Source of the DNA: Gemmatimonadales bacterium
GTDB lineage: Bacteria; Gemmatimonadota; Gemmatimonadetes; Gemmatimonadales; GWC2-71-9
Direction: 5' to 3'
Assembly (NCBI GenBank): GCA_035759745.1
Contig: DASTUF010000084.1
Location: forward strand, 10,784-74,783
DNA length: 64,000 nucleotides
Shown here: positions 4,922-51,502 of the stretch, one piece after another
Numbering within the stretch: the stretch's first letter is position 1
How the letters are laid out: each line of letters begins with the position of its first letter
The notes under the pieces: generated by a model
Told to the model about the DNA's origin: nothing
Seen by the model: the letters and a program-made list of their open reading frames with translations, nothing else
Databases searched by the model: none
Program-made: the position numbers and the translations under genes

Positions 4922-4984
4922 CTGATCCCTGATCCCAGGTCCCTGACCCCTGACCCCACGCCTCACGTCCCACGCCTCACGCCC
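4922..4984. repeat. single-armed array of nine tandem heptamers (CTGATCC x2, CAGGTCC, CTGACCC x2, CACGCCT, CACGTCC, CACGCCT, CACGCCC)
   Basis: Read directly from the sequence; period 7 with no gaps, beginning 11 nt after the gpx stop. No complementary arm nearby. Confidence 0.9.
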
Positions 4985-5794: not shown

Positions 5795-5988
5795 GCTTCT
5801 GGAGCCGCTTGTTCGGCCCGCGCGAGACACCCGAGGAAACGGTGCAGCGCACTCGCCGAGCCCTGGAACTGATGGACTCCGGCAAGACCGACGAGGAAGT
5901 GGAACGCGCGCTCTACATGGACGGAGTCCCGGTAGAGCGCGCGCGTGCGTTGGTCGCCGAGGTACGACGAGTAAAAGGTGAAAGGTGA
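5791..5988 (+). CDS. small hypothetical protein
   Basis: A GTG at 5791 overlaps the upstream TGA (GTGA). The 65-aa helical-looking product ends inside the hairpin arm. Confidence 0.35.
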   Translation: MSFWSRLFGPRETPEETVQRTRRALELMDSGKTDEEVERALYMDGVPVERARALVAEVRRVKGER

Positions 5989-6036
5989 ACAGTGAACGGG
6001 AAGCCCTGATCACCGTTCACCTTTCACGCTTCACCT
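5973..6036. repeat. heptamer hairpin (GGTGAAA/GGTGAAC flavour) between convergent genes
   Basis: AAAAGGTGAAAGGTGAACAGTGAACGG (5973-5999) pairs with CCGTTCACCTTTCACGCTTCACCT (6013-6036). Both flanking stop codons lie inside the arms. Confidence 0.85.
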
Positions 6037-8677: not shown

Positions 8678-8680
8678 CAA

Positions 8681-8784
8681 GTGGGGAGTGGGGAGTGGGA
8701 AGTGGGGAGTGGGGAGTGGGGAGTGGGGAGTGGGAGGTGGTCTCTACTTCCTACTTCCCACTCCCCACTTCCCACTTCCCACTC
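8681..8784. repeat. heptamer hairpin (GTGGGGA/GTGGGAA flavour) with unequal arms
   Basis: The G-rich arm has 8 heptamers plus GTGG (8681-8740), then loop TCTC, then a C-rich arm TACTTCC x2, CACTCCC, CACTTCC x2, CACTC (8745-8784). The right arm encodes the last residues of the ligase. Confidence 0.9.
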
Positions 8785-9698
8785 AGCAGTCTTGGGTGTC
8801 TCAGCATCCCGTCATTGGTCCACTCCGAGAACCCCACGCTGGCCTTCAGGCGAGGCGTTACCCAGTGCGCCTTCTCGCTCGGAGCTACCCTGAGGCCTGC
8901 CACTGGCGGTCGCTGGCGCTCCAGCGGCGCCAGCCGCTGCCGGAGCTCACGCAGCATCGCATCGGTGAAGCCGGTGCCCACCTTGCCCGCATAGCGCAGC
9001 GCCCCGGCCTCCTTCACGCCCAGCAGCAGCGCGCCCAGCCCGGCTCGACTGCCCTTCGGCTCAGTCCAGCCGATGATGACGAACTCGCCCTGCTGCACCG
9101 GCTTGAGTTTGACCCAGTCGCGTGAGCGTCCGCTGCGATAGCTGCTGGCAGCGCGCTTTCCCATGAGCCCCTCAAAGCCCGCATCCACCATCGCGGCGAA
9201 CAGTTCGTCAAAGCTGCCATCCAGCACCGGGGTCAGGCGCAGTGCACCGAGGTCCTCGACCGACTGCTCGAGCAGCGCCCGGCGCTCGGTCCATGGAAGG
9301 CGCGTCACTCGCTTGCCTGCAAGCGCCAGGCAATCGAACACCGAATACTCCACCGGTACATCGCGTTGGATCGCCGGCGGCGGATTGGCCCGCTTCATTC
9401 GCTGCTGCAGCCGCGCGAAGCTGGGCACGCCGGTGGCGGGGTCGGTTGCGATGAGCTCGCCATCCACGATCGCGCCGTCGGGCAGCGCCTCGCCCAGCCG
9501 CGCCGCGACCTCGGGATAGTTGCCCTCCACCCGAAGCTTGTTGCGGGAATAGATCCGGATCTCGTTGCCCTGGCGGGACGCAATGGCCCGAACGCCGTCG
9601 AGCTTCGGCTCGTAGATCCAGCCATCCGGCAATGCGAGGGGCTTGACCAGGGTGGCCAGCATCGGCGCGATCCAGCCTCGCGGGCTGGCTTCGCTCAC
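8751..9698 (-). CDS. ligD: ATP-dependent DNA ligase (NHEJ LigD ligase domain protein)
   Basis: Adenylation motif EPKLDGVR and an OB-fold C-terminus. Start overlaps the upstream gene stop. Confidence 0.9.
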   Translation of the reverse strand: MSEASPRGWIAPMLATLVKPLALPDGWIYEPKLDGVRAIASRQGNEIRIYSRNKLRVEGNYPEVAARLGEALPDGAIVDGELIATDPATGVPSFARLQQRMKRANPPPAIQRDVPVEYSVFDCLALAGKRVTRLPWTERRALLEQSVEDLGALRLTPVLDGSFDELFAAMVDAGFEGLMGKRAASSYRSGRSRDWVKLKPVQQGEFVIIGWTEPKGSRAGLGALLLGVKEAGALRYAGKVGTGFTDAMLRELRQRLAPLERQRPPVAGLRVAPSEKAHWVTPRLKASVGFSEWTNDGMLRHPRLLSGKWEVGSGK

Positions 9699-13882: not shown

Positions 13883-13953
13883 AGGCGTGGGGCGTGAGGC
13901 GTGCGGCGTGGGGGTTTTGCCTCACGCCCCAGGCCCCACGCCCCACGCCTCAC
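13883..13953. repeat. heptamer hairpin (GGCGTGG/GGCGTGA flavour)
   Basis: AGGCGTGGGGCGTGAGGCGTGCGGCGTGGGGG (13883-13914), loop TTTTG, then CCTCACGCCCCAGGCCCCACGCCCCACGCCTCAC (13920-13953). The upstream gene's stop lies inside the right arm. Confidence 0.9.
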
Positions 13954-14915
13954 CAGGCGACAGCGATCCCATCCGGCCCCGCGCCGGTCTTGAAGCGCCG
14001 CACTTCCTCCAGCGTGCGCAGGTCCACCATCGCGGCCTCGTCGGTGCCCTGGAGCGACACGAACGCATAGGCGCCGTCGGGGCTGATGGCGGTGCCGACC
14101 GGCTGGCCATCGCCGAAGCTGATGGCCCGGCGCTCCGACCTGCTCGCGACGTCGAAGACGCGAAGCACGCCAGTCATCGGTGCCGGAACCAGCGCCGTCC
14201 CCCCGTCCGCCGAAATAGCCACCCGGTACGGCAACCCGGCGGCGGGAAGCGTGTCGAGCACCTTCCAATTCTGCGCGTCGACCACGGTCACGGTGTGGTC
14301 GGTGTTGCTGCCCACCCAGACCTCGCGGCCGTCGGGAGTTACCCCCACGCCCTCGGTGCGAGGCGCCACGTCGAGGCTGCGCACAGGAGTGCCGCCAACG
14401 AGGTCAATTTCAGTGATGGAATTGCTGCCGACGTTGGCAGTGAAGGCTCGGCGTCCGTCGGCAGTGACAGCCACCATGTGGGAGCCGCGCGCGTTGGTGG
14501 AAATAGCCCTTTCGACCACGCCCGTGGCGGGGTTCACGAGCAGCACTGCGGAGTTGGCTTCGACCGTCACTACAACCAGGGAGTCACCCGGTAGCACCAC
14601 GATGCCGTGGGGCCGTCGGTACTCGCCGAGGTCGATGGTACGCCGGACGCTGTGGGTGAGGAGGTCGATGACGGTGAGCGAACTGCCCGGTTCCTGGCCG
14701 CCGTAGTTGGCCACGATCGCCCACTCGCCGCTGCCCGCCACAGCCACTTCATGGGGGCCGCTGCCCGTTGGGACCGTCGCAAGCGCCTGCCCCGAGCCGA
14801 TCTCGATGATCGACGCGGTCGCTTCCTGCTTGTTGGCGACGATGAGGAGCGCACCGGCGGGAACTGCGGCCTGTGCCTGAGCCAGGATGGTGATGGCGAG
14901 GAGGAGGGAGGGCAT
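13950..14915 (-). CDS. secreted YVTN/YncE-like beta-propeller repeat protein
   Basis: Signal peptide MPSLLLAITILAQAQA followed by repeated ...V.PDG...V.N..S..V.V.D motifs. Confidence 0.8.
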   Translation of the reverse strand: MPSLLLAITILAQAQAAVPAGALLIVANKQEATASIIEIGSGQALATVPTGSGPHEVAVAGSGEWAIVANYGGQEPGSSLTVIDLLTHSVRRTIDLGEYRRPHGIVVLPGDSLVVVTVEANSAVLLVNPATGVVERAISTNARGSHMVAVTADGRRAFTANVGSNSITEIDLVGGTPVRSLDVAPRTEGVGVTPDGREVWVGSNTDHTVTVVDAQNWKVLDTLPAAGLPYRVAISADGGTALVPAPMTGVLRVFDVASRSERRAISFGDGQPVGTAISPDGAYAFVSLQGTDEAAMVDLRTLEEVRRFKTGAGPDGIAVAW

Positions 14916-14916
14916 A

Positions 14917-14966
14917 GGGGTCAGGGACTAGGGATCAGGGATGAAGTCCCTACGTCCCTCAAACCC
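14917..14966. repeat. GGGNNNN heptamer array (GGGGTCA GGGACTA GGGATCA GGGATGA) with a short complementary segment
   Basis: Read directly: four G3-4 runs at period 7, followed by AGTCCCTACGTCCCT. Confidence 0.8.
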
Positions 14967-14985
14967 GGAAGGGTTCGGCCCCTCC

Positions 14986-15018
14986 TACTTCCCACTCCCC
15001 ACTAACCACTCCCCACTT
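14986..15018. repeat. single-armed C-rich heptamer array (TACTTCC CACTCCC CACTAAC CACTCCC CACTT)
   Basis: Read directly. Lies 7 nt downstream of the tRNA-Phe 3' end in the minus-strand sense. Confidence 0.85.
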
Positions 15019-15024
15019 GATGCA

Positions 15025-15097
<73 letters not shown>

Positions 15098-17457: not shown

Positions 17458-17547
17458 CTAGTGGGGGGTGGGAAGTGGGAAGTGGGCGGACCCACATTCC
17501 ACTTCCCACTCCCCACTCCCCACTCCCCACTTCCCACTTCCCACTAG
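17458..17547. repeat. heptamer hairpin (GTGGGAA/GTGGGGA flavour) bounded by CTAG...CTAG
   Basis: G-rich arm 17458-17486, loop CGGA, then a C-rich arm about twice as long (17491-17547). Starts 1 nt after the upp stop. Confidence 0.9.
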
Positions 17548-36548: not shown

Positions 36549-37930
36549 CTCCCCCGCATTCCCGTCCCTACGACAACGTCCTCGATACCGTCGGCTGGAC
36601 CCCGCTGATCCGGCTGTCCCGGGTCGGCGCCGGGATCCGCACCCCGGTGTATGGCAAGGCGGAGTACGCCAATCCGGGCGGCTCGGTGAAGGACCGCATC
36701 GGCCTCGCCATCATCGAGGCCGCCGAGCGGGCGGGCGAACTCAAGCCCGGCGGCACCGTGGTCGAGGGCACCAGCGGCAACACCGGCGTCGGGCTCGCCA
36801 TGGCGGCCGCGCTCAAGGGCTATCGCTGCATTTTCACCATGCCCGACAAGATGTCGCAGGAGAAGGTCCGGCTGCTCAAGGCCTACGGTGCCGAAGTGGT
36901 CGTGACGCCCACCGCGGTGCCGGCGGATCACCCCGACAACTACGTGATGAAGGCCAAGCACATAGTCCACGATACGCCGGGCGCCGTGCTGGCCAATCAG
37001 TTCTACAACCAGGTCAACCCGGAAGCACACTATGCCACCACCGGCCCGGAGATCTGGGAGCAGACCGAAGGCAAGGTGACCCATCTGGTAGCGGGCGCCG
37101 GCACCGGCGGGACCATCAGCGGCGCGGGAAAGTTCCTCAAGGAGAAGAATCCGAAGATCCGGGTCATCGCCGGCGACCCGGTCGGATCGCTCTACAGCGG
37201 CTACGCTGCGACCAGGACGATGGGCGAGGGCCACCCCTACAAGGTGGAAGGCATCGGCGGCGACAAGATCCCCACCACGGTCTGGTTCGACGTGATCGAC
37301 GAATGGCGCCAGCTGCCCGACAAGGCCTCGATGAGCATGGCCCGGCGGATCGCCCGTGAGGAGGGCATCCTGGTCGGCGGATCTGCCGGGCTCAATGTCC
37401 ACCTCGCGCTGGACGTGGCGCGCGAAGCGGATGATCCGGCAGCGTGCGTCGTCACCATCCTGTGCGACACCGGCGAGCGCTACCTGTCGAAGTTGTTCAA
37501 CGATGCGTGGATGGAAGAAAACCAGATGCTGGATCGCGCCCCGGTCACGGTGGAGCAGCTCCTCGCCGAGCGCGATGGCGGCGCACCCGAACTGGTGAGC
37601 GTGGCGCCGGCGGCGGCAGTGCGCCAGGCGCTCAACCTGATGAGTTCATGGGGCGTGAGCCAGATTCCCGTCATCGACAACGGGACGTCCGTGGGGGGAC
37701 TCATCGAAGGCCAGCTCATGGCCCGCGCGCTGGCACAGCCCGCCATGCTGGACCGCCCGGTGCGCGAGGTGATGGAAGCGCCCTTCCCCGAAGTCGACGC
37801 CGCATTCCCGGTGGACCGGCTGGCACCGGCGCTCACCCGCGAGAGCCCGGCTGCGTTGGTGACCCGCGACGGCAAGGTGATCGGGATTGTCAGTCGGTAT
37901 GATCTATTGAAAAGGCTCATTGGAGCCTGA
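36545..37930 (+). CDS. cystathionine beta-synthase (PLP-dependent CysK/CBS family plus tandem CBS domains)
   Basis: The PLP-Lys region NPGGSVKDR, the GTSGNTG loop, and a C-terminal CBS pair. Confidence 0.9.
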   Translation: MTPPHSRPYDNVLDTVGWTPLIRLSRVGAGIRTPVYGKAEYANPGGSVKDRIGLAIIEAAERAGELKPGGTVVEGTSGNTGVGLAMAAALKGYRCIFTMPDKMSQEKVRLLKAYGAEVVVTPTAVPADHPDNYVMKAKHIVHDTPGAVLANQFYNQVNPEAHYATTGPEIWEQTEGKVTHLVAGAGTGGTISGAGKFLKEKNPKIRVIAGDPVGSLYSGYAATRTMGEGHPYKVEGIGGDKIPTTVWFDVIDEWRQLPDKASMSMARRIAREEGILVGGSAGLNVHLALDVAREADDPAACVVTILCDTGERYLSKLFNDAWMEENQMLDRAPVTVEQLLAERDGGAPELVSVAPAAAVRQALNLMSSWGVSQIPVIDNGTSVGGLIEGQLMARALAQPAMLDRPVREVMEAPFPEVDAAFPVDRLAPALTRESPAALVTRDGKVIGIVSRYDLLKRLIGA

Positions 37931-37988
37931 GGCGTGAGGCGTGGGGAAATACCTCACGCCCCACGCCCTACGCCCCACGCCCCACACC
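37928..37988. repeat. heptamer hairpin (GGCGTGA/GGCGTGG flavour)
   Basis: TGAGGCGTGAGGCGTGGGG (the first TGA is the CBS stop), loop AAATAC, then CTCACGCCCCACGCCCTACGCCCCACGCCCCACACC. The right arm is about twice the length of the left. Confidence 0.9.
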
Positions 37989-39930: not shown

Positions 39931-40875
39931 GTGCTCATCGATCTGGTTCCCGAATTTCTCTCCGTAACCAACGCCGCCGATCCTGAGCGCGCCTACGCGC
40001 GCTATCGCGACGAGCATCGCGCCGTTCTCGACGCCTACTGGCGCAACTACGTCCTCGATCCCGATACGTCCCAGGCGGAAGAGGTGGTTCGGGCAGCGCT
40101 GAGCGCCGACCGCACCGATCTCCGCGCCGTCGTGGCCGGGCTCAACCTGCCGCAGCTGGTCGAGGAGACCATCGCACGCGCCACCGACGTGCTCGGCATC
40201 GACCAGCCGACCGACGTGTACCTGATGGTGGGAATGGGTGCCGCCAACGCCGGCGAGCTGGTAATCAACGGCCGCGGCGCCGCCTTCATCTGCATCGAGC
40301 ACTTCACCGGCCGGCCCAACCCCCAGAGCTACGGCATGGGGCTCTCGCCCGAGCGAATTCCCCTCTGGGTGGCGCACGAATTGGCGCACACGGTGCGGTA
40401 CACGTCGCCTGACAGCCGGAGCGAGATGCACCGGCTGGTGGCGGAGAACGCCGGCTACTACGACTTCTGGCTCACCGGAAGCCGCGCGACGCTGCGCGAA
40501 CTGATGGTCAATGAAGGGCTCGCCGTGCACGCCTCCCAGGCGGTCGTGCCCGGATGCCGCGAAGCTGACTACTTCGGCTATCCACGCCGCCAGTACCAGC
40601 GCCTCCGCGAGATGGAGTCGTTCCTTCGCCGGTCCACCGAGCACGAACTCGAGCTGGCCGGCCTGGGTCTTCGGCTGCGCTACCTGACCGGAGGGATGAG
40701 TCCCGCTGCCCGGCTGGTGCAGGGACGGGTCCTGCCCGAACGGGGCGGCTACTACCTCGGCTGGAGGATGGCGGACCCGATGGTCAGCGCACGCGGAATC
40801 CGCGAAGCACTCAGGGCCTCTGCGCAGGACGTCTGCGCCTGGGAGTCGCGATCCCGCGAGATGGCCGCAGGGTAA
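39931..40875 (+). CDS. DUF2268-like putative zinc metalloprotease
   Basis: HELAHTVR (HExxH) in a roughly 310-aa cytoplasmic protein. GTG start. Confidence 0.65.
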   Translation: MLIDLVPEFLSVTNAADPERAYARYRDEHRAVLDAYWRNYVLDPDTSQAEEVVRAALSADRTDLRAVVAGLNLPQLVEETIARATDVLGIDQPTDVYLMVGMGAANAGELVINGRGAAFICIEHFTGRPNPQSYGMGLSPERIPLWVAHELAHTVRYTSPDSRSEMHRLVAENAGYYDFWLTGSRATLRELMVNEGLAVHASQAVVPGCREADYFGYPRRQYQRLREMESFLRRSTEHELELAGLGLRLRYLTGGMSPAARLVQGRVLPERGGYYLGWRMADPMVSARGIREALRASAQDVCAWESRSREMAAG

Positions 40876-40879
40876 TCCA

Positions 40880-40909
40880 CCGTCGGTCGGCTGCCGCCGA
40901 CGGCTATTT
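40880..40909. terminator. weak hairpin between convergent genes
   Basis: CCGTCGG-N10-CCGACGG followed by CTATTT. Overlaps the mnmE stop region. Confidence 0.3.
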
Positions 40910-42256
40910 GCCGACGCAGAACTCGCTGAACACCCGTCCCAGCACCTCCTCGACATCCACCACCCCGATCAGCTCATCCAGCGCCAGCACGGCCTGCCGG
41001 ACGTGATGGGCGCACAGCACCGCGTCGCCGAGTGGCGCCGCGAGTTGAGCGCGGGCCACACCCAGCTCGCCGCGTGCACGTTCCAGCGCCACCCGGTGGC
41101 GGGTGCGCGTGAGCATCGGCTCCAGATCCGCCAGCTGCACCCGGTCACCGAAGAGTCTGTCGGCGATCGTGCGCCGGAGGTCCGCCAATCCTTGCCCCGT
41201 CACTACCGATACTCCATCTGACCGACCGGTCAGATCCGCCTTGGTATGGACAATGAGTTCAGAGTTGAGAGTTGAGAGCTGAGAGTTGAGATCCTTGGTC
41301 GGGACGAGGGTGGTCACTCTCAACTCTTGACTCTCAACTCTCGACTCGTCCGCACACACTAGCACTAAATCCGCACTATCCAGCCACCGTCGACTCACTG
41401 CGACACCCAGAGCCTCGATTCGGTCACTGGTGTCGCGAATGCCGGCCGTATCGACCAGCCGGACCGGCCAGCCGAGGAAGGTAACGTGCGCCTCGATCGC
41501 GTCCCTGGTGGTGCCAGGAACTTCGGTGACTATGGCTCGCTCGGAGCCCAGCAGCGCATTGAAGAGCGAGGACTTGCCCGCGTTTGGCCGACCGGCCAGT
41601 ACGACAAGGGCGCCCTCGCGGAGCCGAGTTCCTTCCGGCGCGGTGGACAGTAATGTGTCAATTCTGGCGCAGGTCTGGTCCAGCTGACTCTGGAGCCTGT
41701 CGGGCGCGATGGGCCCGTCGTCTTCGCCGGGGAAATCGATCTCGTAGCTGAGAAGGCCGAGCAGGTCGAGGAGCGAGCTGCGGAGTTCGAGGATGCGGCG
41801 GGAAAGGTTGCCGTCGAGCTGGGCCAGCGCTGCGCGCGCCTGGGCCGGAGCGGTCGCATCGATCAGGTCACCCACCGCCTCGGCCTGGACCAGGTCCATG
41901 CGGCCGTTGAGCACCGCACGGCGGGTGAACTCTCCAGCGGCGGCCTGGCGGGCACCGGCGGCGATGAGCGCGGCCAGCAGTCGTTCCGGAGCCACCAGAC
42001 CGCCGTGGCAGGAGAACTCGACGGTGTCCTCTCCGGAGTAGCTGGCCGGTGCGGGAAAGACGGTGTACAGCCCGCGGTCGATGGGCCGGTCGCCCGAATC
42101 GTGAAAGGTCGCGAGCTGGGCGACCCGAGGTTCGGCCCGGAATCCCTGCACTATTTTCGCCGCGATCTCGAATGCTCCGGGGCCCGCCAGCCGCACGATC
42201 GCCAGCGCCGAGCGGCCCGGCGGTGTGGCGAGCGCGACTATCGCGTCCCCGAACAT
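40904..42256 (-). CDS. mnmE: tRNA modification GTPase MnmE
   Basis: N-terminal DAIVALATPPG, G1 GRPNAGKSS, G3 DTAG, G4-like TKAD, and the C-terminal CVGK. Contains a heptamer hairpin in frame. Confidence 0.95.
   Translation of the reverse strand: MFGDAIVALATPPGRSALAIVRLAGPGAFEIAAKIVQGFRAEPRVAQLATFHDSGDRPIDRGLYTVFPAPASYSGEDTVEFSCHGGLVAPERLLAALIAAGARQAAAGEFTRRAVLNGRMDLVQAEAVGDLIDATAPAQARAALAQLDGNLSRRILELRSSLLDLLGLLSYEIDFPGEDDGPIAPDRLQSQLDQTCARIDTLLSTAPEGTRLREGALVVLAGRPNAGKSSLFNALLGSERAIVTEVPGTTRDAIEAHVTFLGWPVRLVDTAGIRDTSDRIEALGVAVSRRWLDSADLVLVCADESRVESQELRVTTLVPTKDLNSQLSTLNSELIVHTKADLTGRSDGVSVVTGQGLADLRRTIADRLFGDRVQLADLEPMLTRTRHRVALERARGELGVARAQLAAPLGDAVLCAHHVRQAVLALDELIGVVDVEEVLGRVFSEFCVGK
41255..41347. 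repeat. heptamer hairpin (GAGTTGA flavour) located inside the mnmE coding sequence
   Basis: GAGTTCA GAGTTGA GAGTTGA GAGCTGA GAGTTGA (41255-41289), a 25-nt loop, then ACTC TCAACTC TTGACTC TCAACTC TCGACTC (41316-41347). Confidence 0.9.
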
Positions 42257-42266
42257 GGGTCCCCGG

Positions 42267-43955
42267 CTACTTCCCGGACCTGGTCTTCACGTTGACGATG
42301 GCTGCCGCCACCTTCTTCCTGCGTTCGCGCGACAGCATCCATTGCTGGGGGATGCTGGCAATGTTGCTGACCGCGTAGTACAGGTTGAGCCCCGACGCGA
42401 GGTTGACGAAGAACACCGTCATCATCACCGGCATGACGTACAGCATCATCTTCATCTGCGGGTTGGGCTCCATGCCAAGCTGCCCCACCTTGCTCAGCAC
42501 GAACATCGAAAGTCCCATCACCACCGGGATGATGTACAGCGGATCGGCGCGAGCAAGGTCGGGCAGCCAGAGGAACGACTGGCCCCTGAGCTCGATCGCG
42601 TTCTGGAACACGAAGAACAGGGCGAACAGCACCGGCATCGGCAGCAGCATCGGCCAGCACCCGCTCAGCGGGTTGGCACCGTGTTCCTTGTACAGCCGGA
42701 ACATCTCCTGCTGCAGCAGCGCCGGCTGCTCCTTGTAGCGCTCCTGCGCCGACTTCAAGTGGGGCTGGATCTCCTGCATCTTCATGTTGGCGCGCATGGC
42801 CTTCTGGTTCAGCGGCCAGAGCAGCACCCGCACCAGGATCCCGAACAGCACCAGCACCACGCCGTACGCCAGGTTCAGCTGCTCATGCATCTGCACCAGC
42901 AGCCACCGCACCGGCACCGCGAAGAACTGGACCATGGTCCGGAACCCGGGCCAGCCATAGGGATTAACGTCGTCGAATTCGTGACCCAGGCTGGTCAGCC
43001 GGTCATACTCCATTGGCCCGATGTAACTGCGCCAGGAGAAGGTCCCGCTGGCCGGCACCGGCAGCACCGCGGCCGTGATCACCGTGTTCGGATCCTTGCC
43101 GGCCATCACTGGTGCCGTGGCCGTTACCCCGCTGATCCGGGGCGACTGGCCCGCCGAATCCACCGCGAAGAGGCTGGCCACGAAGTACATCGACTTGATC
43201 GCGGTCCACGCGAACGGGCCGTTGAGAACCTTGGTCTCGCCCGGGTCGAACGCCCTGAAGTCGGTCCGGTCGACCCCGCCAGCCATGGTAACGATGGCGT
43301 AGGACCGGAAGTTGAGCGATGAATCGGTTTCGGCGTTGTGGAGCCCGCTGCCGAGCGACACCAGCAGCGATGCGCCCTGGGGGGCCAGGGGGGTAACCGT
43401 GCCGGCCACCTCGACCTGATAGTCGGGGTGGAAGGTGTAGGTCAGCTGAACCGACGTACCGCCGCGCTGGGCCGAGAGCGTGAGTGGCGTCGGCCCGTCT
43501 ACGGTGAGCGCCGTGGCGCTGGGCTCGAAGGTCCAGTCCCGGAAATCGATAGTGTCCCGGCCATTGACCAGCGCCAGCCCGAAGAGCCCGTCACCCGGCC
43601 GGATGAGCTGGACGTTGCCCGAGTCACCCTTCGCCAGGGTGCGATACTCGTTCAACTCAGCGCCGACCAGTCGAGCACCGCGGGTGCTGATCCGCCAGGT
43701 GTAGAGCGGAGCACTGACGGTGACCAGCTGCTCGGCGGGCTGGTAGTCGCCGGTCGCGAGATTCGAGTCGGGAGGCGTGGCCTGCATGGCAGGCGCCTGC
43801 GCGGTCGGTGCTGTCGCCCCGCTGTCGGCGGGGAGCACGGTGTCGGCCGCCCCGACGGCAGGGGCGTTCCGGGCGGGCGGGCGCTTGAACAGGAATGTCG
43901 GGGCGAGTGCGATCACCATGATCAGCATGATCGCCCAGGCAAAGCGTCGGTCCAT
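42267..43955 (-). CDS. yidC: membrane protein insertase YidC
   Basis: Large periplasmic P1 domain plus the conserved C-terminal TM core (...WPLNQKAMRANMKMQEIQP...GCWPMLLPMPV...). Confidence 0.95.
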   Translation of the reverse strand: MDRRFAWAIMLIMVIALAPTFLFKRPPARNAPAVGAADTVLPADSGATAPTAQAPAMQATPPDSNLATGDYQPAEQLVTVSAPLYTWRISTRGARLVGAELNEYRTLAKGDSGNVQLIRPGDGLFGLALVNGRDTIDFRDWTFEPSATALTVDGPTPLTLSAQRGGTSVQLTYTFHPDYQVEVAGTVTPLAPQGASLLVSLGSGLHNAETDSSLNFRSYAIVTMAGGVDRTDFRAFDPGETKVLNGPFAWTAIKSMYFVASLFAVDSAGQSPRISGVTATAPVMAGKDPNTVITAAVLPVPASGTFSWRSYIGPMEYDRLTSLGHEFDDVNPYGWPGFRTMVQFFAVPVRWLLVQMHEQLNLAYGVVLVLFGILVRVLLWPLNQKAMRANMKMQEIQPHLKSAQERYKEQPALLQQEMFRLYKEHGANPLSGCWPMLLPMPVLFALFFVFQNAIELRGQSFLWLPDLARADPLYIIPVVMGLSMFVLSKVGQLGMEPNPQMKMMLYVMPVMMTVFFVNLASGLNLYYAVSNIASIPQQWMLSRERRKKVAAAIVNVKTRSGK

Positions 43956-44949: not shown

Positions 44950-46335
44950 ATGCAGCAGTCCGCCCGGGACGCGTGGAAGCGTATTCTCGATTCCGCCAAG
45001 CGCGATCTACCCGATCACACGATCCGCACCTGGCTCGAACCCACGGAAGCCATCGAGTACGACGATGGCCGCCTGGTCGTCGCCGCGCCCGATCAATTCG
45101 CGGTTGAATGGAACGAGACCAAGCACGCCCCCGTGCTTGCCCGCATCGCGCAGGAAGTGCTGGGCGAGCCGGTGACGCTGGTCTTCCGGGTCCAGGAGGA
45201 CCGCCAGCGCCGCCCGCAGATGGACTTCTTCGTGGCGCCTTCGCCCGCGGTGGCGCCGCCGGCGGTGCCCGTCAATCCCAGTAGCCAGCCGCTCAACGAG
45301 CGCTACGGGTTTGCCCAGTTCGTCATCGGCAAGTCCAATGAGCTGGCGGCCGCGGCCGCCCACGCGGTGACGTCGGCGCCGGGCAAGACCTACAACCCGC
45401 TCTTCATTTATGGCGCCACCGGGCTGGGCAAGACCCACCTGATGCAGGCCATCGCCCACAAGGTGCTGGAGAACAACCCGGACTCCCGGGTACTGTATGT
45501 GGGCGCCGAGCAATTCATCAACGAAGTCATCGAAAGCATCCACAGCCGGACCATGCCGGAGTTCCGGCGCCGGTACCGGAGTGACGTGGACCTCTTCCTG
45601 GTGGACGACGTGCATTTCCTTGAGGGCAAGGAAATGACCCAGGAGGAGTTCTTCCACACCTTCAATGCGCTCTACGAGGCGGGCAAGCAGATCGTCCTGA
45701 CGTCGGACCGCCCGCCCAAGGAAATCCCGAACCTCGAGGCCCGGCTGGTCAGCCGCTTCGAATGGGGCATGGTGGCCGACGTGGGCCAGCCCGACCTGGA
45801 GCACCGGATCGCCATTCTGCGGAAGAAGCAGGAGCAGGACCATCTCGAGCTCACCATTCCGGACGACGTGCTCCGCTTCATCGCCGAGCACGTCCGGACC
45901 AGCGTGCGCGAGCTCGAGGGCTGCATCATCAAGATGCTGCTCTACGCCTCGCTCAAGCACCGCGAGATTTCCATTGAGCTGGCCCGCGAGGCCCTGGCCG
46001 ACAAGATCCGCTCCGACGATGACGAGCTCGAACCCGAAGCACGGCCGACCATCTCGCGGGTGCAGGAGGTCGTCGCCCGCCGCTGGGGTGTCACACCCGA
46101 GGGGCTCCGGAGCAAGGCCCGGATCAAGACCCTCACCGTGCCGCGGCAGATCGCGATGTACCTCGCGCGTGAGGTGCTGCAGATGCAACTTGTGGAAATC
46201 GGCCAGGCCTTCGGCGGCCGCGACCACTCGACAGTGATTCACAGTGTCGACAAGGTGCAGCGACAGATGCAGCGCGATCGCACATTTCGCGAGCGCGTGG
46301 AGCACGCCAGGCACGAAGTGGTGACAGCCGGCTGA
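44950..46335 (+). CDS. dnaA: chromosomal replication initiator protein DnaA
   Basis: AAA+ Walker A GATGLGKTHL, sensor motifs, and the C-terminal DNA-binding domain (...GGRDHSTVIHS). Confidence 0.98.
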   Translation: MQQSARDAWKRILDSAKRDLPDHTIRTWLEPTEAIEYDDGRLVVAAPDQFAVEWNETKHAPVLARIAQEVLGEPVTLVFRVQEDRQRRPQMDFFVAPSPAVAPPAVPVNPSSQPLNERYGFAQFVIGKSNELAAAAAHAVTSAPGKTYNPLFIYGATGLGKTHLMQAIAHKVLENNPDSRVLYVGAEQFINEVIESIHSRTMPEFRRRYRSDVDLFLVDDVHFLEGKEMTQEEFFHTFNALYEAGKQIVLTSDRPPKEIPNLEARLVSRFEWGMVADVGQPDLEHRIAILRKKQEQDHLELTIPDDVLRFIAEHVRTSVRELEGCIIKMLLYASLKHREISIELAREALADKIRSDDDELEPEARPTISRVQEVVARRWGVTPEGLRSKARIKTLTVPRQIAMYLAREVLQMQLVEIGQAFGGRDHSTVIHSVDKVQRQMQRDRTFRERVEHARHEVVTAG

Positions 46336-46582
46336 GCGTCACCCACAGAATCTTCCACGCGTTGAAAGCGGGAATGTAGGTAATCTGGACGACGGGGATT
46401 TTCGGGGGTTGGGAAGCGCATTCGTCCCCATCCCCCACGGAGGTCCAACACGAACGGAGCGCTGGAGACAGTGCAGTACGTAGGAGTTGTGCCGCCGGTC
46501 CACATTTCCGGCCTCTCTACTACTACTGCTATATCTCTTAAATTGGTGAAGTAGTCTTAATTAGAGCCATCCGAGGAGAGGC
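46336..46582. other. candidate oriC / DNA-unwinding region (dnaA-dnaN intergenic)
   Basis: DnaA-box-like sites TCACCCACA (46339-47), TCTTCCACG (46351-59) and CGGTCCACA (46496-504). (TAC)3 at 46518-26, then a conspicuously AT-rich tract to about 46566 in an otherwise GC-rich genome. Confidence 0.5.
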
Positions 46583-47695
46583 ATGAAGTTCTCGATCACG
46601 CGCGAGCAGATGCAGGAAGGACTCGTCGCCGTCGCGGCAGCGGTGCCGTCGAAGACGACACTGCCGGTGCTCTCGAATATCCTGGTCGAGGCGGGCAAGG
46701 ACGGGATCCGGCTCTCGGGCACCGACCTCGACGTCTCGGTGAGCACGACCGTGAGCGCATCGGTCGACCAGGAAGGCGCCATCACGCTGCCGGCCCGCAA
46801 GCTGGTCGAGATCGTGCGCGAACTTCCCAGCGCCTCGATCCGGATCACAGGATCGGGTGAGCAGCGGGTGTCCATCGAGTGCGGCCGGTCGCGCTTCAAG
46901 CTGCTGGGCCTGCCCAAGGAAGAGTTCCCCGCCTTTCCGGCAGTCAAGTTCGACAAGGCCTGGCGGGCGACATCGGGCGACCTCCAGAAGCTCATCTCCC
47001 ACGTGGCGTTCGCCGCCAGCACCGAGGAAAGCCGCCCGATTCTCAACGGCGTGCTCTGGGAGCTCCGGCCTGAACGGATGCGCATGGTCGCCACCAACGG
47101 CCATCGCCTCGCCAAGATGGACGTCCCCGCCACCGCAGGCGGTGGCGCCCAGGCCGACCTCATCGTACCACCCAAGGCCCTGGAGCAGATCCGCCGGCTG
47201 TTTGGTTCCGATGAGGATGTCGAGATCGCCCGGAGCGAGAATCACCTCGCCTTCCGGACCGGTTCGACCCAGATCTACACCCGGCTGATCGACGGACCGT
47301 ATCCCAACTACGAGCAGGTGATTCCGCGGGAAAACGACAAGGTCGCCACCACCGACAAGGCGGCGATCGCGGCGGCGCTGCGGCGCATGAGCATCGTCGC
47401 CAGCGACCAGACCCACCGGATCCGGCTGGCCTTCGCCAATGGCTCGTGCAAGCTGTCGGTGCAGACCCCTGACCTGGGCGAGGCCCAGGAAGAGGTGACG
47501 GTGAGTTACGAGGGGGACCCGCTGGAGATCGGCTTCAACGCGGCCTACATGCTCGAGATCCTGAAGTTCATGCCCACCGACGAGGTGCGGTTCACCTTCA
47601 AGGCACCCGAGCGCGCGGCGACCTGCGAACCGGTGGGCTGGGACGACCCGGCCAGCTACCTCGCCCTGGTCATGCCACTCAGGCTCGTAGACTAG
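46583..47695 (+). CDS. dnaN: DNA polymerase III subunit beta (sliding clamp)
   Basis: MKFSITREQ...TLPVLSNILVEA...NGHRLA...MPLRL. RBS GAGGAGAGG upstream. Confidence 0.97.
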   Translation: MKFSITREQMQEGLVAVAAAVPSKTTLPVLSNILVEAGKDGIRLSGTDLDVSVSTTVSASVDQEGAITLPARKLVEIVRELPSASIRITGSGEQRVSIECGRSRFKLLGLPKEEFPAFPAVKFDKAWRATSGDLQKLISHVAFAASTEESRPILNGVLWELRPERMRMVATNGHRLAKMDVPATAGGGAQADLIVPPKALEQIRRLFGSDEDVEIARSENHLAFRTGSTQIYTRLIDGPYPNYEQVIPRENDKVATTDKAAIAAALRRMSIVASDQTHRIRLAFANGSCKLSVQTPDLGEAQEEVTVSYEGDPLEIGFNAAYMLEILKFMPTDEVRFTFKAPERAATCEPVGWDDPASYLALVMPLRLVD

Positions 47696-47712
47696 ACTAG
47701 ACTAGACTAGAC
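47688..47712. repeat. (TAGAC)5 pentanucleotide tandem repeat containing the dnaN stop codon
   Basis: TAGAC x5, read directly. This puts TAG in all three plus-strand frames. Confidence 0.9.
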
Positions 47713-47718
47713 TGGGAT

Positions 47719-47804
47719 GTGATTGGTGAAGGGTGAACGGTGATGGGTGATTGGGCGACTGCGCCTCCCTGCCCCGTTCACTCATCACCGCTCACTTTTC
47801 ACTC
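47719..47804. repeat. heptamer hairpin (GTGATTG/GTGAAGG/GTGAACG flavour)
   Basis: GTGATTG GTGAAGG GTGAACG GTGATGG GTGATTG (47719-53) pairs with CCGTTCAC TCATCAC CGCTCAC TTTTCAC TC (47774-804). The stop of the convergent gene lies in the right arm. Confidence 0.85.
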
Positions 47805-51029: not shown

Positions 51030-51053
51030 GGGCCCCCGAAGTTCGGGGGCCCA
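51030..51053 (-). terminator. rnpB terminator hairpin
   Basis: On the minus strand GGGCCCCCGAACTTCGGGGGCCC is followed by ATTTCTGTTG, directly after the 3' strand of the P1 stem. Confidence 0.6.
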
Positions 51054-51418
51054 TCGGGCCAGGCCGTAAGCCGAGTTCTGTTCCGTCCGCCGGAGCGGAG
51101 GGATGATCATCTGTCTGGGACGGTCGTCGCCGACCGCCTCGTGCAGCCTACCCGCGGCTCGGTCGGTGTGGGTCACACCTCGCCGCTTATTTGGCCTTGC
51201 TCCGGCTGGGGGTTACCGTGCCACCACCGTTACCGGCGGTGCGGTGGGCTCTTACCCCACCGTTTCACCCTTACCCGACGGTTGCCCGCCTGGCGGTCTG
51301 TTCTCTGTGGCCCTGTCCGTCGCCTTGCGGCGCCCAGGCGTTACCTGGCAGCCTACCCGTTGGAGCTCGGACTTTCCTCCAGACGCTTCCGCGCCCAGCG
51401 ACCATCACGCCCGGCCCA
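51054..51418 (-). ncRNA. rnpB: RNase P RNA, bacterial type A
   Basis: The reverse complement contains the universally conserved blocks GGAGGAAAGTCCGAGCTCC, GGGTAGGCTGCCAGGTAACGCCTGG, CACAGAGAACAGACCGCC, GGTAAGGGTGAAACGGTGGGGTAAGAGCCCACCGC, CCGGAGCAAGGCCAAATA, AGACAGATGATCATCC and ACAGAACTCGGCTTA. P1 pairs GGGCCGGGCGT with ACGGCCTGGCCC. Ends are accurate to about 5 nt. Confidence 0.92.
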
Positions 51419-51460: not shown

Positions 51461-51502
51461 CACTTCCCAATTCCCACTTCCCACTTCCCACTTCCCACTT
51501 CA
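51461..51502. repeat. single-armed heptamer array (CACTTCC x4, CAATTCC, CACTTCA); G-rich on the minus strand
   Basis: Read directly. The kinase stop codon is the last triplet of the array, and no complementary arm is nearby. Confidence 0.9.

Follow-up and report, generated by a model that had tools for sequence, protein, structure and literature searches.

The gene mnmE, which encodes a tRNA-modification GTPase, contains a complete heptamer hairpin within its coding sequence in the DNA described here, a 64-kb stretch (hereafter the window; G+C content 67%) of a Gemmatimonadales metagenome-assembled genome (MAG). Consistent with the original prediction, the gene was found to be an intact open reading frame (ORF) of 450 amino acids (aa). 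Its product matched the Pfam domains TrmE_N, MMR_HSR1, and MnmE_helical in full, matched solved MnmE crystal structures from end to end (E = 7.5e-82), and was 100% identical, in a protein search, to P0001, an annotated MnmE from a Gemmatimonadales MAG. The hallmarks of MnmE were all kept, i.e., GRPNAGKS, DTAG, TKAD, and a terminal CVGK corresponding to the C-terminal CxGK motif. The gene had initially been called essential, which goes beyond what is known, as most E. coli backgrounds can do without mnmE.

The hairpin is 93 nucleotides (nt) long and corresponds exactly to codons 304-334 (ESRVESQELRVTTLVPTKDLNSQLSTLNSEL). It lies between the G3 motif DTAG (codons 269-272) and the G4 motif TKAD (codons 338-341), and both of its arms are translated in frame, as had been predicted (Table 1). 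Tandem Repeats Finder (TRF) reported a period of 7 for both arms, with 5.3 copies and 90% matches for the 3' mRNA arm (consensus GAGTTGA), and 4.6 copies and 80% matches for the 5' mRNA arm. These values agree with the five and four units first described; the loop, however, measured 24 nt rather than 25, and included a small inner stem. The arms were recovered as inverted repeats of 30-32 nt that were 84-87% complementary. Lag-7 identity of the hairpin was 0.53, versus 0.18-0.36 at other lags. A two-unit pattern (GAGTTGAGAGTTGA, at most two mismatches) had seven matches in the window, every one within the hairpin, versus a mean of 0.25 and a maximum of 2 in the shuffled window (100 trials). 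A comparison of array counts at lags 4 to 12 had unequal thresholds and was not used to judge whether period 7 is special; TRF scores were used instead. The left arm had a GC skew of +0.76 and the right arm one of -0.73, so that the arrays are convergent, with the G-rich strand first on both strands.

The predicted fold of the hairpin was strong in every form considered: -53 kcal/mol for the mRNA strand (z = -6.4), -61.9 kcal/mol for RNA of the opposite strand (z = -7.4), and -26.5 kcal/mol for single-stranded DNA (z = -4.05), with no shuffled sequence folding as low in any of the three. No Rfam 15 family was found at the hairpin with gathering and E-value thresholds, the sole match being a chance one (mir-2576, 20.7 bits versus a gathering score of 83; E = 0.89). 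Likewise, no terminator-like or promoter-like site was detected at the hairpin (positions 40800-42400 scanned for terminators on both strands), and the sequence following the stem (CGTCCGCACAC on the + strand, ATTGTCCATACC on the - strand) contains no U tract. Two Logan assemblies from different sequencing runs (L171 and L172) carried both arms unchanged; they differed from the window mnmE by 2 single-nucleotide polymorphisms in 1353 nt, one of which is located in the hairpin loop (K321M). As two independent assemblies reproduce both arms, the hairpin is not an assembly artefact.

Table 1. Position of the mnmE hairpin, its surroundings, and the other heptamer elements in the window.
Feature	Position	Strand	Details and basis
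mnmE (tRNA-modification GTPase)	40904..42256	-	Pfam, structure match, identical annotated protein
G3 motif DTAG	41441..41452	-	invariant in both protein alignments
Beta-strand LVLVCA, codons 297-302, before the hairpin	41351..41368	-	includes invariant Cys301; alignments, both AlphaFold models
Complete heptamer hairpin	41255..41347	-	TRF, inverted-repeat search, folding
5' mRNA arm, G-rich	41316..41347	-	GAGTCGA GAGTTGA GAGTCAA GAGTTGA GAGT...; TRF
Variant unit GAGTCAA	41327..41333	-	CAA = codon Q310 (41327-41329)
Hairpin loop	41292..41315	-	TRF, inverted repeats, folding
3' mRNA arm, C-rich, near-perfect	41255..41291	-	TCTCAAC TCTCAGC TCTCAAC TCTCAAC TCTGAAC TC; TRF
Beta-strand and G4 motif IVHTKAD, codons 335-341, directly after the hairpin	41234..41254	-	alignments, AlphaFold strand 333-337
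Degenerate in-frame GACTCGN array, yidC linker after the first membrane helix	43743..43771	-	remnant; clear arrays in relatives
Heptamer element	4922-4983		units CTGATCC and CACGCCT
Heptamer element	5974-6036		unit AAAGGTG
Heptamer element	8680-8783		unit AGTGGGG
Heptamer element	13884-13953		unit GGCGTGG
Heptamer element	14913-15017		units GGGATCA and AGTGGGG
Heptamer element	17460-17545		unit AGTGGGA
Heptamer element	37928-37985		unit GAGGCGT
Heptamer element	47688-47795		unit GGTGAWN
Heptamer element	51461-51501		unit AGTGGGA
RNase P RNA	51051-51418	-	285.7 bits
tRNA	15025-15097	-	RNA-family scan

The mnmE gene was compared at the DNA level between the window and ten close relatives (11 lineages), the relatives being 80-89% identical to the window outside the segment that carries the hairpin. 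In the protein search, this close group showed 81-88% identity and a length of 435-458 aa, whereas the next tier reached at most 68% identity, with a length of mostly 437-441 aa. Outside the segment, all 11 genes consist of 891 + 342 nt with zero indels, and the proteins of the close group were near-identical except for the stretch from Cys301 to TKxD, which varied in both sequence and length; T338, K339, and D341 were invariant in both alignments. The segment measured 75, 81, 81, 84, 96, 102 (four alleles), 120, or 144 nt, and was built in this clade from heptamer arrays of the types GAGTTGA, AAGTCGC, AAGTCRC, GAGGCRC/AAGGCAC, and AGTGGGA or AGTGAGA. Hairpins were formed by the window allele (GAGTTGA), P0004 (AAGTCGC), P0007 (AAGTCRC), P0002 and P0003 (GAGGCRC/AAGGCAC), and P0014, which combines a tandemly duplicated 21-nt block with a GCGCCTC arm. 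P0005 has the same unit as P0002 and P0003 and lacks 21 nt (3 units), and with them most of the 5' arm, compared to its closest relatives, while a single arm was observed in P0006, P0010, and P0012 (AGTGGGA) and in P0008 (AGTGAGA). Predicted folds ranged from about -40 to -68 kcal/mol for hairpin alleles and from about -10 to -30 kcal/mol for one-armed or truncated ones. Five of the 11 lineages (P0005, P0006, P0008, P0010, and P0012) therefore have an intact mnmE without a two-armed hairpin, which is thus dispensable at this site. Relatives encode different peptides from different heptamers, and not the same peptide without the 7-nt period; the latter would have spoken against the original prediction.

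Outgroup proteins (at most 68% identity), among them those of more distant Gemmatimonadales, have an ordinary segment of the conserved type VLLCVEAGRExxxDExAIAAxRPTLVVRTKxD, as found in 40 outgroup loci, none of which showed a clear lag-7 signal in the mnmE segment. The spacing between the Cys and the Thr of TKxD was typically 24 residues in outgroups at 60% identity or more, and 26-29 in more distant loci, compared with 21-44 residues in the clade and 36 in the window; some close relatives are thus shorter than the outgroup. As the outgroups lack period 7, the heptamer array is a derived and clade-specific feature. In addition, the window segment was only 12 aa longer than in outgroups (36 versus 24), and 4 aa longer than in 9hip, the best-matching solved MnmE. 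A 31-aa element giving a net gain of only 12 residues points to a replacement more than an insertion, in agreement with this part of the original prediction. A search of genome contigs with MnmE gave outgroups only, which served as controls, and a search of metagenome contigs with the MnmE protein gave no full-length match above 67% identity, hence no further alleles of the clade.

One further contig, L173, carries a P0012-type allele (821-830) in which CAG is changed to TAG in the first codons of the segment, so that a premature stop splits mnmE into two ORFs. This change was observed in a single Logan short-read contig, and may be an error or a true null allele.

Since 7 and 3 have no common factor, the units of a heptamer array fall in each of the three reading frames in turn, and a perfect (GAGTTGA)n array would have an in-frame TGA in every third unit. 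An idealised 5' arm of five GAGTTGA units would translate as ELRVES followed by a stop, whereas the real arm reads ESRVESQ, with the glutamine (Q310) encoded by the variant unit GAGTCAA, exactly where the consensus would place TGA in frame. Similarly, one deviant unit in P0008, AGTTAGA, abolishes the in-frame TGA of its AGTGAGA array. The TCAACTC array of the 3' arm, which is nearly perfect in the window, carries no stops whichever frame is read. The repeat is broken only at those units that, if perfect, would bring a TGA into the reading frame. The segment changed length in 21-nt steps on at least two occasions (the loss in P0005 and the tandem duplication in P0014), and all of the 27 full-length protein alleles were in frame. 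Purifying selection on the segment acts only on the reading frame and on the absence of stops. The stronger fold of the opposite strand, seen in the window, P0004, and P0007, has the same origin, because the transitions that avoid stops in the 5' arm appear as A-C mismatches in the mRNA and pair as G-U on the opposite strand. An antisense RNA was considered as the reason for this stronger fold and was rejected, since these transitions account for the asymmetry.

Turnover of the segment is fast, and alleles of closely related genes differed markedly within it. P0010, P0006, and P0008 were 98.0-98.9% identical outside it and 65-81% alike inside; in P0008, all units had moved from the AGTGGGA to the AGTGAGA type, an instance of concerted evolution. 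P0007 and P0014 (95.3% identical outside) had about half of the segment in common, and a pair 95% identical outside the segment measured 102 versus 144 nt inside. Within 90%-identity clusters, the segment was constant in length and exhibited point changes only. The unique 20-40 nt to the left of the array in P0014 and P0008 resembled the P0002/P0003 lineage and not their own nearest kin, to which they were 95-99% identical elsewhere (comparison of L083 and L088 for P0014 versus P0007, and of L089 and L081 for P0008 versus P0010). These mosaic left flanks suggest short-patch recombination centred on the repeat.

Duplex energies were also calculated for arms within and between lineages. Arms of the same allele paired at a mean of -47.6 kcal/mol, compared with -36.3 kcal/mol across lineages; those of the window paired at -56.7 kcal/mol with each other, and at -20 to -48 kcal/mol with the arms of other lineages. 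As own arms pair more strongly than cross-lineage arms, both arms must have changed their unit together.

In Ras-like G domains, the stretch from beta4 to the NKxD-bearing beta5 is helix alpha3. In the window protein, a hidden Markov model alignment to solved MnmE placed the hairpin-encoded peptide opposite ...DPAEIWPEFIARLP..., and an AlphaFold model (117 sequences; mean predicted local distance difference test score (pLDDT) 75, predicted template modelling score (pTM) 0.54) had confident strands at residues 297-302 and 333-337, in 10-residue blocks averaging 84-89. Between these, residues 306-330 had a pLDDT below 50 and were modelled as coil, with only a 4-residue helix (314-317) in this model of moderate quality; a shallower model (25 sequences, pTM 0.37) agreed on the weak segment. 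The element had been thought to replace a variable loop. The replacement stands, as described above, but what it replaces is helix alpha3 plus loops in canonical G domains. The peptide was hydrophilic in all alleles (S, E, R, G, K, Q, T, D), and the translated product in the models is a predicted low-confidence hydrophilic linker in place of helix alpha3. The peptide of the 3' arm, LNSQLSTLNSEL, has a leucine spacing of 4-3-4 and could form an amphipathic, surrogate helix. The segment is a surface-exposed beta4-alpha3-beta5 stretch of the G domain that tolerates change in this clade.

The mnmE hairpin was not the only heptamer element of the window, which contains about ten of them (approximately 1 per 6 kb), with units specific to each locus. 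Comparable elements were observed in the Gemmatimonadales loci L009, L011, L019, L020, and L098. Array density was 0.19 per kb in the window and 0.18 per kb in the close clade, compared with 0.08-0.12 per kb in Gemmatimonadales at 60-67% identity, 0.013 per kb in more distant Gemmatimonadota, and 0.02 per kb in Clostridia and other distant controls. The mnmE hairpin is a coding-region instance of an order-wide, genome-wide family of heptamer hairpins. Six of the nine elements outside mnmE touch or overlap a gene's stop codon (6035, 8677, 13950, 37928, 47693, and 51500), with the G-rich arm first on the mRNA of that gene. TGA or TAG occurs in many of the units, so that three of them suffice for a stop in every frame.

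The site between the CBS-domain gene and ddl gave a comparison of filled and empty orthologous positions. It is filled in the window (37925-37988) and in L088 (7240-7314), where the array begins at the stop codon, and empty in four relatives (L081 14210-14240, L084, L087, and L089), where the two genes abut without a spacer (ATGCGCAT|CTACGCCCC...). No target-site duplication was found in the filled-versus-empty comparison at 37925-37988, and the unit in L088, GGCGTGA, corresponds to the terminal 7 nt of the upstream gene, with its stop codon. These two observations argue for local seeding, and not transposition.

All other members of the family had been described as intergenic, which is not entirely accurate. 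The ORF 8751..9698(-) ends with ...RHPRLLSGKWEVGSGK and a stop codon, its last 11 codons (8751-8783, tail SGKWEVGSGK) being the AGTGGGA array of element 8680-8783 and its stop being provided by the variant unit AGTAG; the same peptide, SGKWEVGSGK, occurs in the mnmE segment of P0006. The second translated array is located in the yidC linker (43743-43771). Clear GACTCGN arrays were observed at this position in L081 (8454-8476), L087 (942-964), L089 (8454-8476), and L088 (1458-1491), and translate as 7-aa repeats of the type RDSxLxT. The same unit makes up the 3' arm of the mnmE hairpins in P0004 and P0007, at a distance of about 2.5 kb. Within this window, the mnmE copy is therefore the sole complete hairpin located in an ORF, but not the only translated member of the family.

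Gene order was common to all of the ten fetched relatives (dnaA, rpmH, rnpA, yidC, mnmE, DUF2268, rhomboid, and ddl), and the window includes a replication-origin neighbourhood with dnaA, dnaN, rpmH, rnpA, yidC, and mnmE (44950-47695 listed). At the end of dnaN, a perfect pentamer array, (TAGAC)x5.2, starts from the TAG stop (47688-47713) and is followed by the GGTGAWN heptamer hairpin; arrays at gene ends are thus not all of period 7. The RNase P RNA and tRNA genes are both bordered by heptamer arrays. Just downstream of the mnmE hairpin, we also observed a perfect 9-bp inverted repeat with a 2-nt spacer (ATCTGACCG AC CGGTCAGAT, 41215-41236). It corresponds to the codons of DLTGRSD, and its core was near-constant in 11 relatives, despite 80-89% overall identity.

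Taken together, these data make it probable that the mnmE element is a self-renewing heptanucleotide repeat and quasi-palindrome hotspot, located in a permissive segment of the G domain and filtered for frame and stop codons. The repeat would have originated in situ within mnmE, in the ancestor of one genus-level clade of Gemmatimonadales. Replication slippage would make the arrays grow, shrink, and change their unit; intramolecular template switching would copy the arms onto each other, keeping them complementary without any need for function; and short-patch recombination between diverged alleles would add further turnover. The hairpin most likely has no dedicated role in MnmE. Template switching can create and maintain hairpins (PMC8794818), and co-evolution of the arms is expected equally from selection on the stem and from quasi-palindrome template switching. 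The mutational explanation is favoured because 5 of the 11 lineages keep an intact mnmE without the two-armed hairpin.

Several observations weigh against this explanation. P0002 and P0003 were 90% alike inside the segment and 87.8% outside, so change is episodic or partly recombinational, and not steady. The G-rich (purine-rich) arm came first, and the C-rich arm second, in 11 out of the 11 skewed two-armed elements (in the window, L011, L019, L088, and L098), on either strand. This polarity hints at a directional process or a function; it could result from template switching after stalling at G-rich arrays, or from function. Unit AGTGGGR was present at four or more unlinked loci of the window as well as in mnmE of one subclade, which pure local seeding does not predict. 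Moreover, slippage and template switching are deduced from the pattern seen rather than from observed events; both AlphaFold models are no more than moderate in quality (pTM 0.37 and 0.54); and the predicted -53 kcal/mol stem in the mRNA could well affect translation or decay.

The polarity and the recurrent units would be accommodated if a directional process, specific to the Gemmatimonadales lineage, wrote or maintained heptamer hairpins, which would then be no passive products of slippage, as 3'-end or insulator structures, with the mnmE copy being a functional internal site, an idea that we regard as unlikely. Hairpins would then be seeded on the last 7 nt of genes, G-rich arm first and with recurrent AGTGGGR and GRGGCGT units, and the mnmE copy would be, for example, a point of RNA processing or pausing, or a variable cassette of the G domain driven by recombination, with arm complementarity under selection.

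A selected regulatory structure within mnmE itself, for instance a translational pause or RNase III-type cleavage site in the mRNA, or a stable antisense or insulator hairpin on the opposite strand that would keep transcripts of the convergent DUF2268 gene from reading through, appears equally doubtful. It would fit the very strong folds on both strands, the co-variation of the arms between lineages, and the location of family members right at stop codons, which suggests a 3'-end role. The opposite-strand fold, stronger by 9 kcal/mol and with G-U pairs at the mismatches, would point the same way, but stop avoidance in the sense 5' arm accounts for this asymmetry, and template switching alone can keep the arms complementary (PMC8794818). 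Furthermore, the five lineages without a two-armed hairpin retain an intact mnmE, and the hairpin is devoid of a U tract, a terminator-like or promoter-like site, and an Rfam family.

With a similarly low likelihood, the segment could be an adaptive hypervariable cassette, subject to diversifying selection on an exposed surface of MnmE (e.g., for escape from a phage or toxin protein), or a phase-variable on/off locus. Extreme local divergence beside flanks that are 98-99% identical, and mosaic left flanks in P0008 and P0014, which indicate that alleles were exchanged by recombination, are in line with a cassette. However, segment length was the same within 90%-identity clusters, and similar arrays in the yidC linker and in an ORF tail point to mutational supply instead of selection specific to MnmE. 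Concerning phase variation, each 7-nt unit gained or lost would shift the frame, and L173 has a nonsense allele at the start of the segment; yet this only nonsense allele comes from one short-read contig, all 27 full-length alleles were in frame, and mnmE is not a typical contingency gene. In addition, the arrays of the window are interrupted (no identical adjacent units in the 5' arm and two at most in the 3' arm), which disfavours slippage. A target of a diversity-generating retroelement was also considered, and was rejected based on the length changes, the periodic units, and the lack of a template repeat in the flanking sequences examined. The ORF is continuous, and programmed frameshifting and ribosome hopping were accordingly rejected.

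It is very unlikely that a mobile repeat, similar to REP/BIME, REPIN, or MITEs (transposable elements of the miniature inverted-repeat type), was inserted in mnmE with the frame kept by chance. Such an origin would be consistent with a dispersed family of about ten hairpins in 64 kb, with units AGTGGGR and GRGGCGT recurring at several loci, and with differences in presence between relatives at orthologous intergenic sites. The family nevertheless has no shared consensus, since the unit differs from locus to locus, and the filled site near ddl has neither a target duplication nor, in L088, a unit other than the last 7 nt of the flanking gene. The small net gain of the segment, and the relatives that are shorter than the outgroup, also indicate a replacement in place.

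Finally, although repeats and palindromes are classic sources of misassembly and a stretch of N breaks one array in L089, the possibility that the hairpin arose in the assembly or sequencing of the MAG can practically be dismissed, given the identical arms in two other assemblies from different runs, the intact ORF, and the arrays carried at the same site by ten relatives from independent projects.

The mnmE element provides a natural series of alleles for a single conserved gene (DNA of 11 lineages and 27 full-length protein alleles), in which the birth of a hairpin, the joint change of unit in both arms, the loss of an arm, and trimming by 21 nt can be followed, with only in-frame and stop-free versions allowed. 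The long-noted and unexplained excess of heptanucleotide repeats in bacteria becomes directly testable, as does the proposal that template switching, and not selection, keeps hairpin arms complementary. The alleles indicate that essentially arbitrary hydrophilic sequence can stand in for the alpha3 segment of the MnmE G domain. For annotation, they serve as a warning that the dynamics of repeats can, as by-products, yield "compensatory" changes in stems and hypervariable loops in proteins.

Bacteria have an excess of heptameric repeats, and Xanthomonas genomes contain 70-75 inverted pairs each, reported to be always convergent, with 7-11% of the repeats overlapping an ORF at least partly (PMC4692102). 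The G-rich repeats of Xanthomonas and Nostoc (GGGNATC type; Rehm et al. 2015, PMC4692102) resemble the family described here in being dispersed 7-nt tandem units, in forming many convergent array pairs that are stem-loop capable, with the G-rich strand first on either strand, and in not being conserved at the same genes between related species. They lie preferentially within 50 bp after stop codons, as do the six window elements that abut a stop codon, although not the mnmE copy. GGGAYCW-type units like those of Xanthomonas and Nostoc were found in window elements 4922-4957 and 14913-14942, and other elements carry units with G3-4 tracts (AGTGGGG, GGGATCA). The mnmE hairpin has neither a G3-4 tract nor a GGGNATC-type unit, and its GAGTTGA cannot form a G-quadruplex. 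The window also differs from Xanthomonas, which has one genome-wide consensus, in that units vary by locus, and from both Xanthomonas and Nostoc in that both mnmE arms are translated within a conserved housekeeping gene. An orthologous allele series with arm co-evolution and stop avoidance is not described for these repeats in PMC4692102.

The cyanobacterial short tandemly repeated repetitive (STRR) sequences and the TAACTGA repeats of Beggiatoaceae and Microcystis (MacGregor 2015, PMC4679880) are likewise 7-nt arrays that are mostly intergenic and near gene ends. When located in ORFs, they are read in all three frames as 7-residue peptide repeats, and units containing stops are constrained, as observed here. 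Unlike the locus-specific hairpins of the window, TAACTGA-type repeats have a single fixed unit and are nearly all direct (169 direct sets versus one indirect; PMC4679880). Hotspots of quasi-palindrome template switching (PMC7202029, PMC8794818, and, in yeast coding sequences, PMC8604942) also show homogenised imperfect inverted repeats, in which multi-nucleotide "compensatory" change needs no selection on structure and can act in coding sequence and alter proteins. Classical cases involve short, non-repetitive inverted repeats, whereas each arm is here a slippage-prone heptamer array, so that two mutational processes are coupled.

Like the family described here, REP (repetitive extragenic palindromic)/BIME and REPIN elements are abundant extragenic hairpins near the stop codons of compact genomes. 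REPs have a conserved sequence and are mobilised by RAYT transposases, whereas the hairpins of the window share no sequence and appear to be locally seeded at the one site compared. Borg tandem repeats (PMC9879509) and contingency loci are, as the mnmE segment, fast-evolving repeats in ORFs that encode hydrophilic, low-confidence segments. In contingency loci as in the mnmE segment, the frame can be shifted by units whose length is not divisible by 3. In the study of Borg elements, in-ORF units are reportedly multiples of 3. Compared with both, the 7-nt unit in mnmE forces 21-nt steps, and there were no on/off frameshift alleles among the 27 full-length alleles, so that mnmE does not count as a contingency locus. 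The mnmE element is a variant of the heptameric repeats and inverted pairs of bacteria, and is of value for its allele series and for the avoidance of stops seen in it, rather than for a new mechanism.

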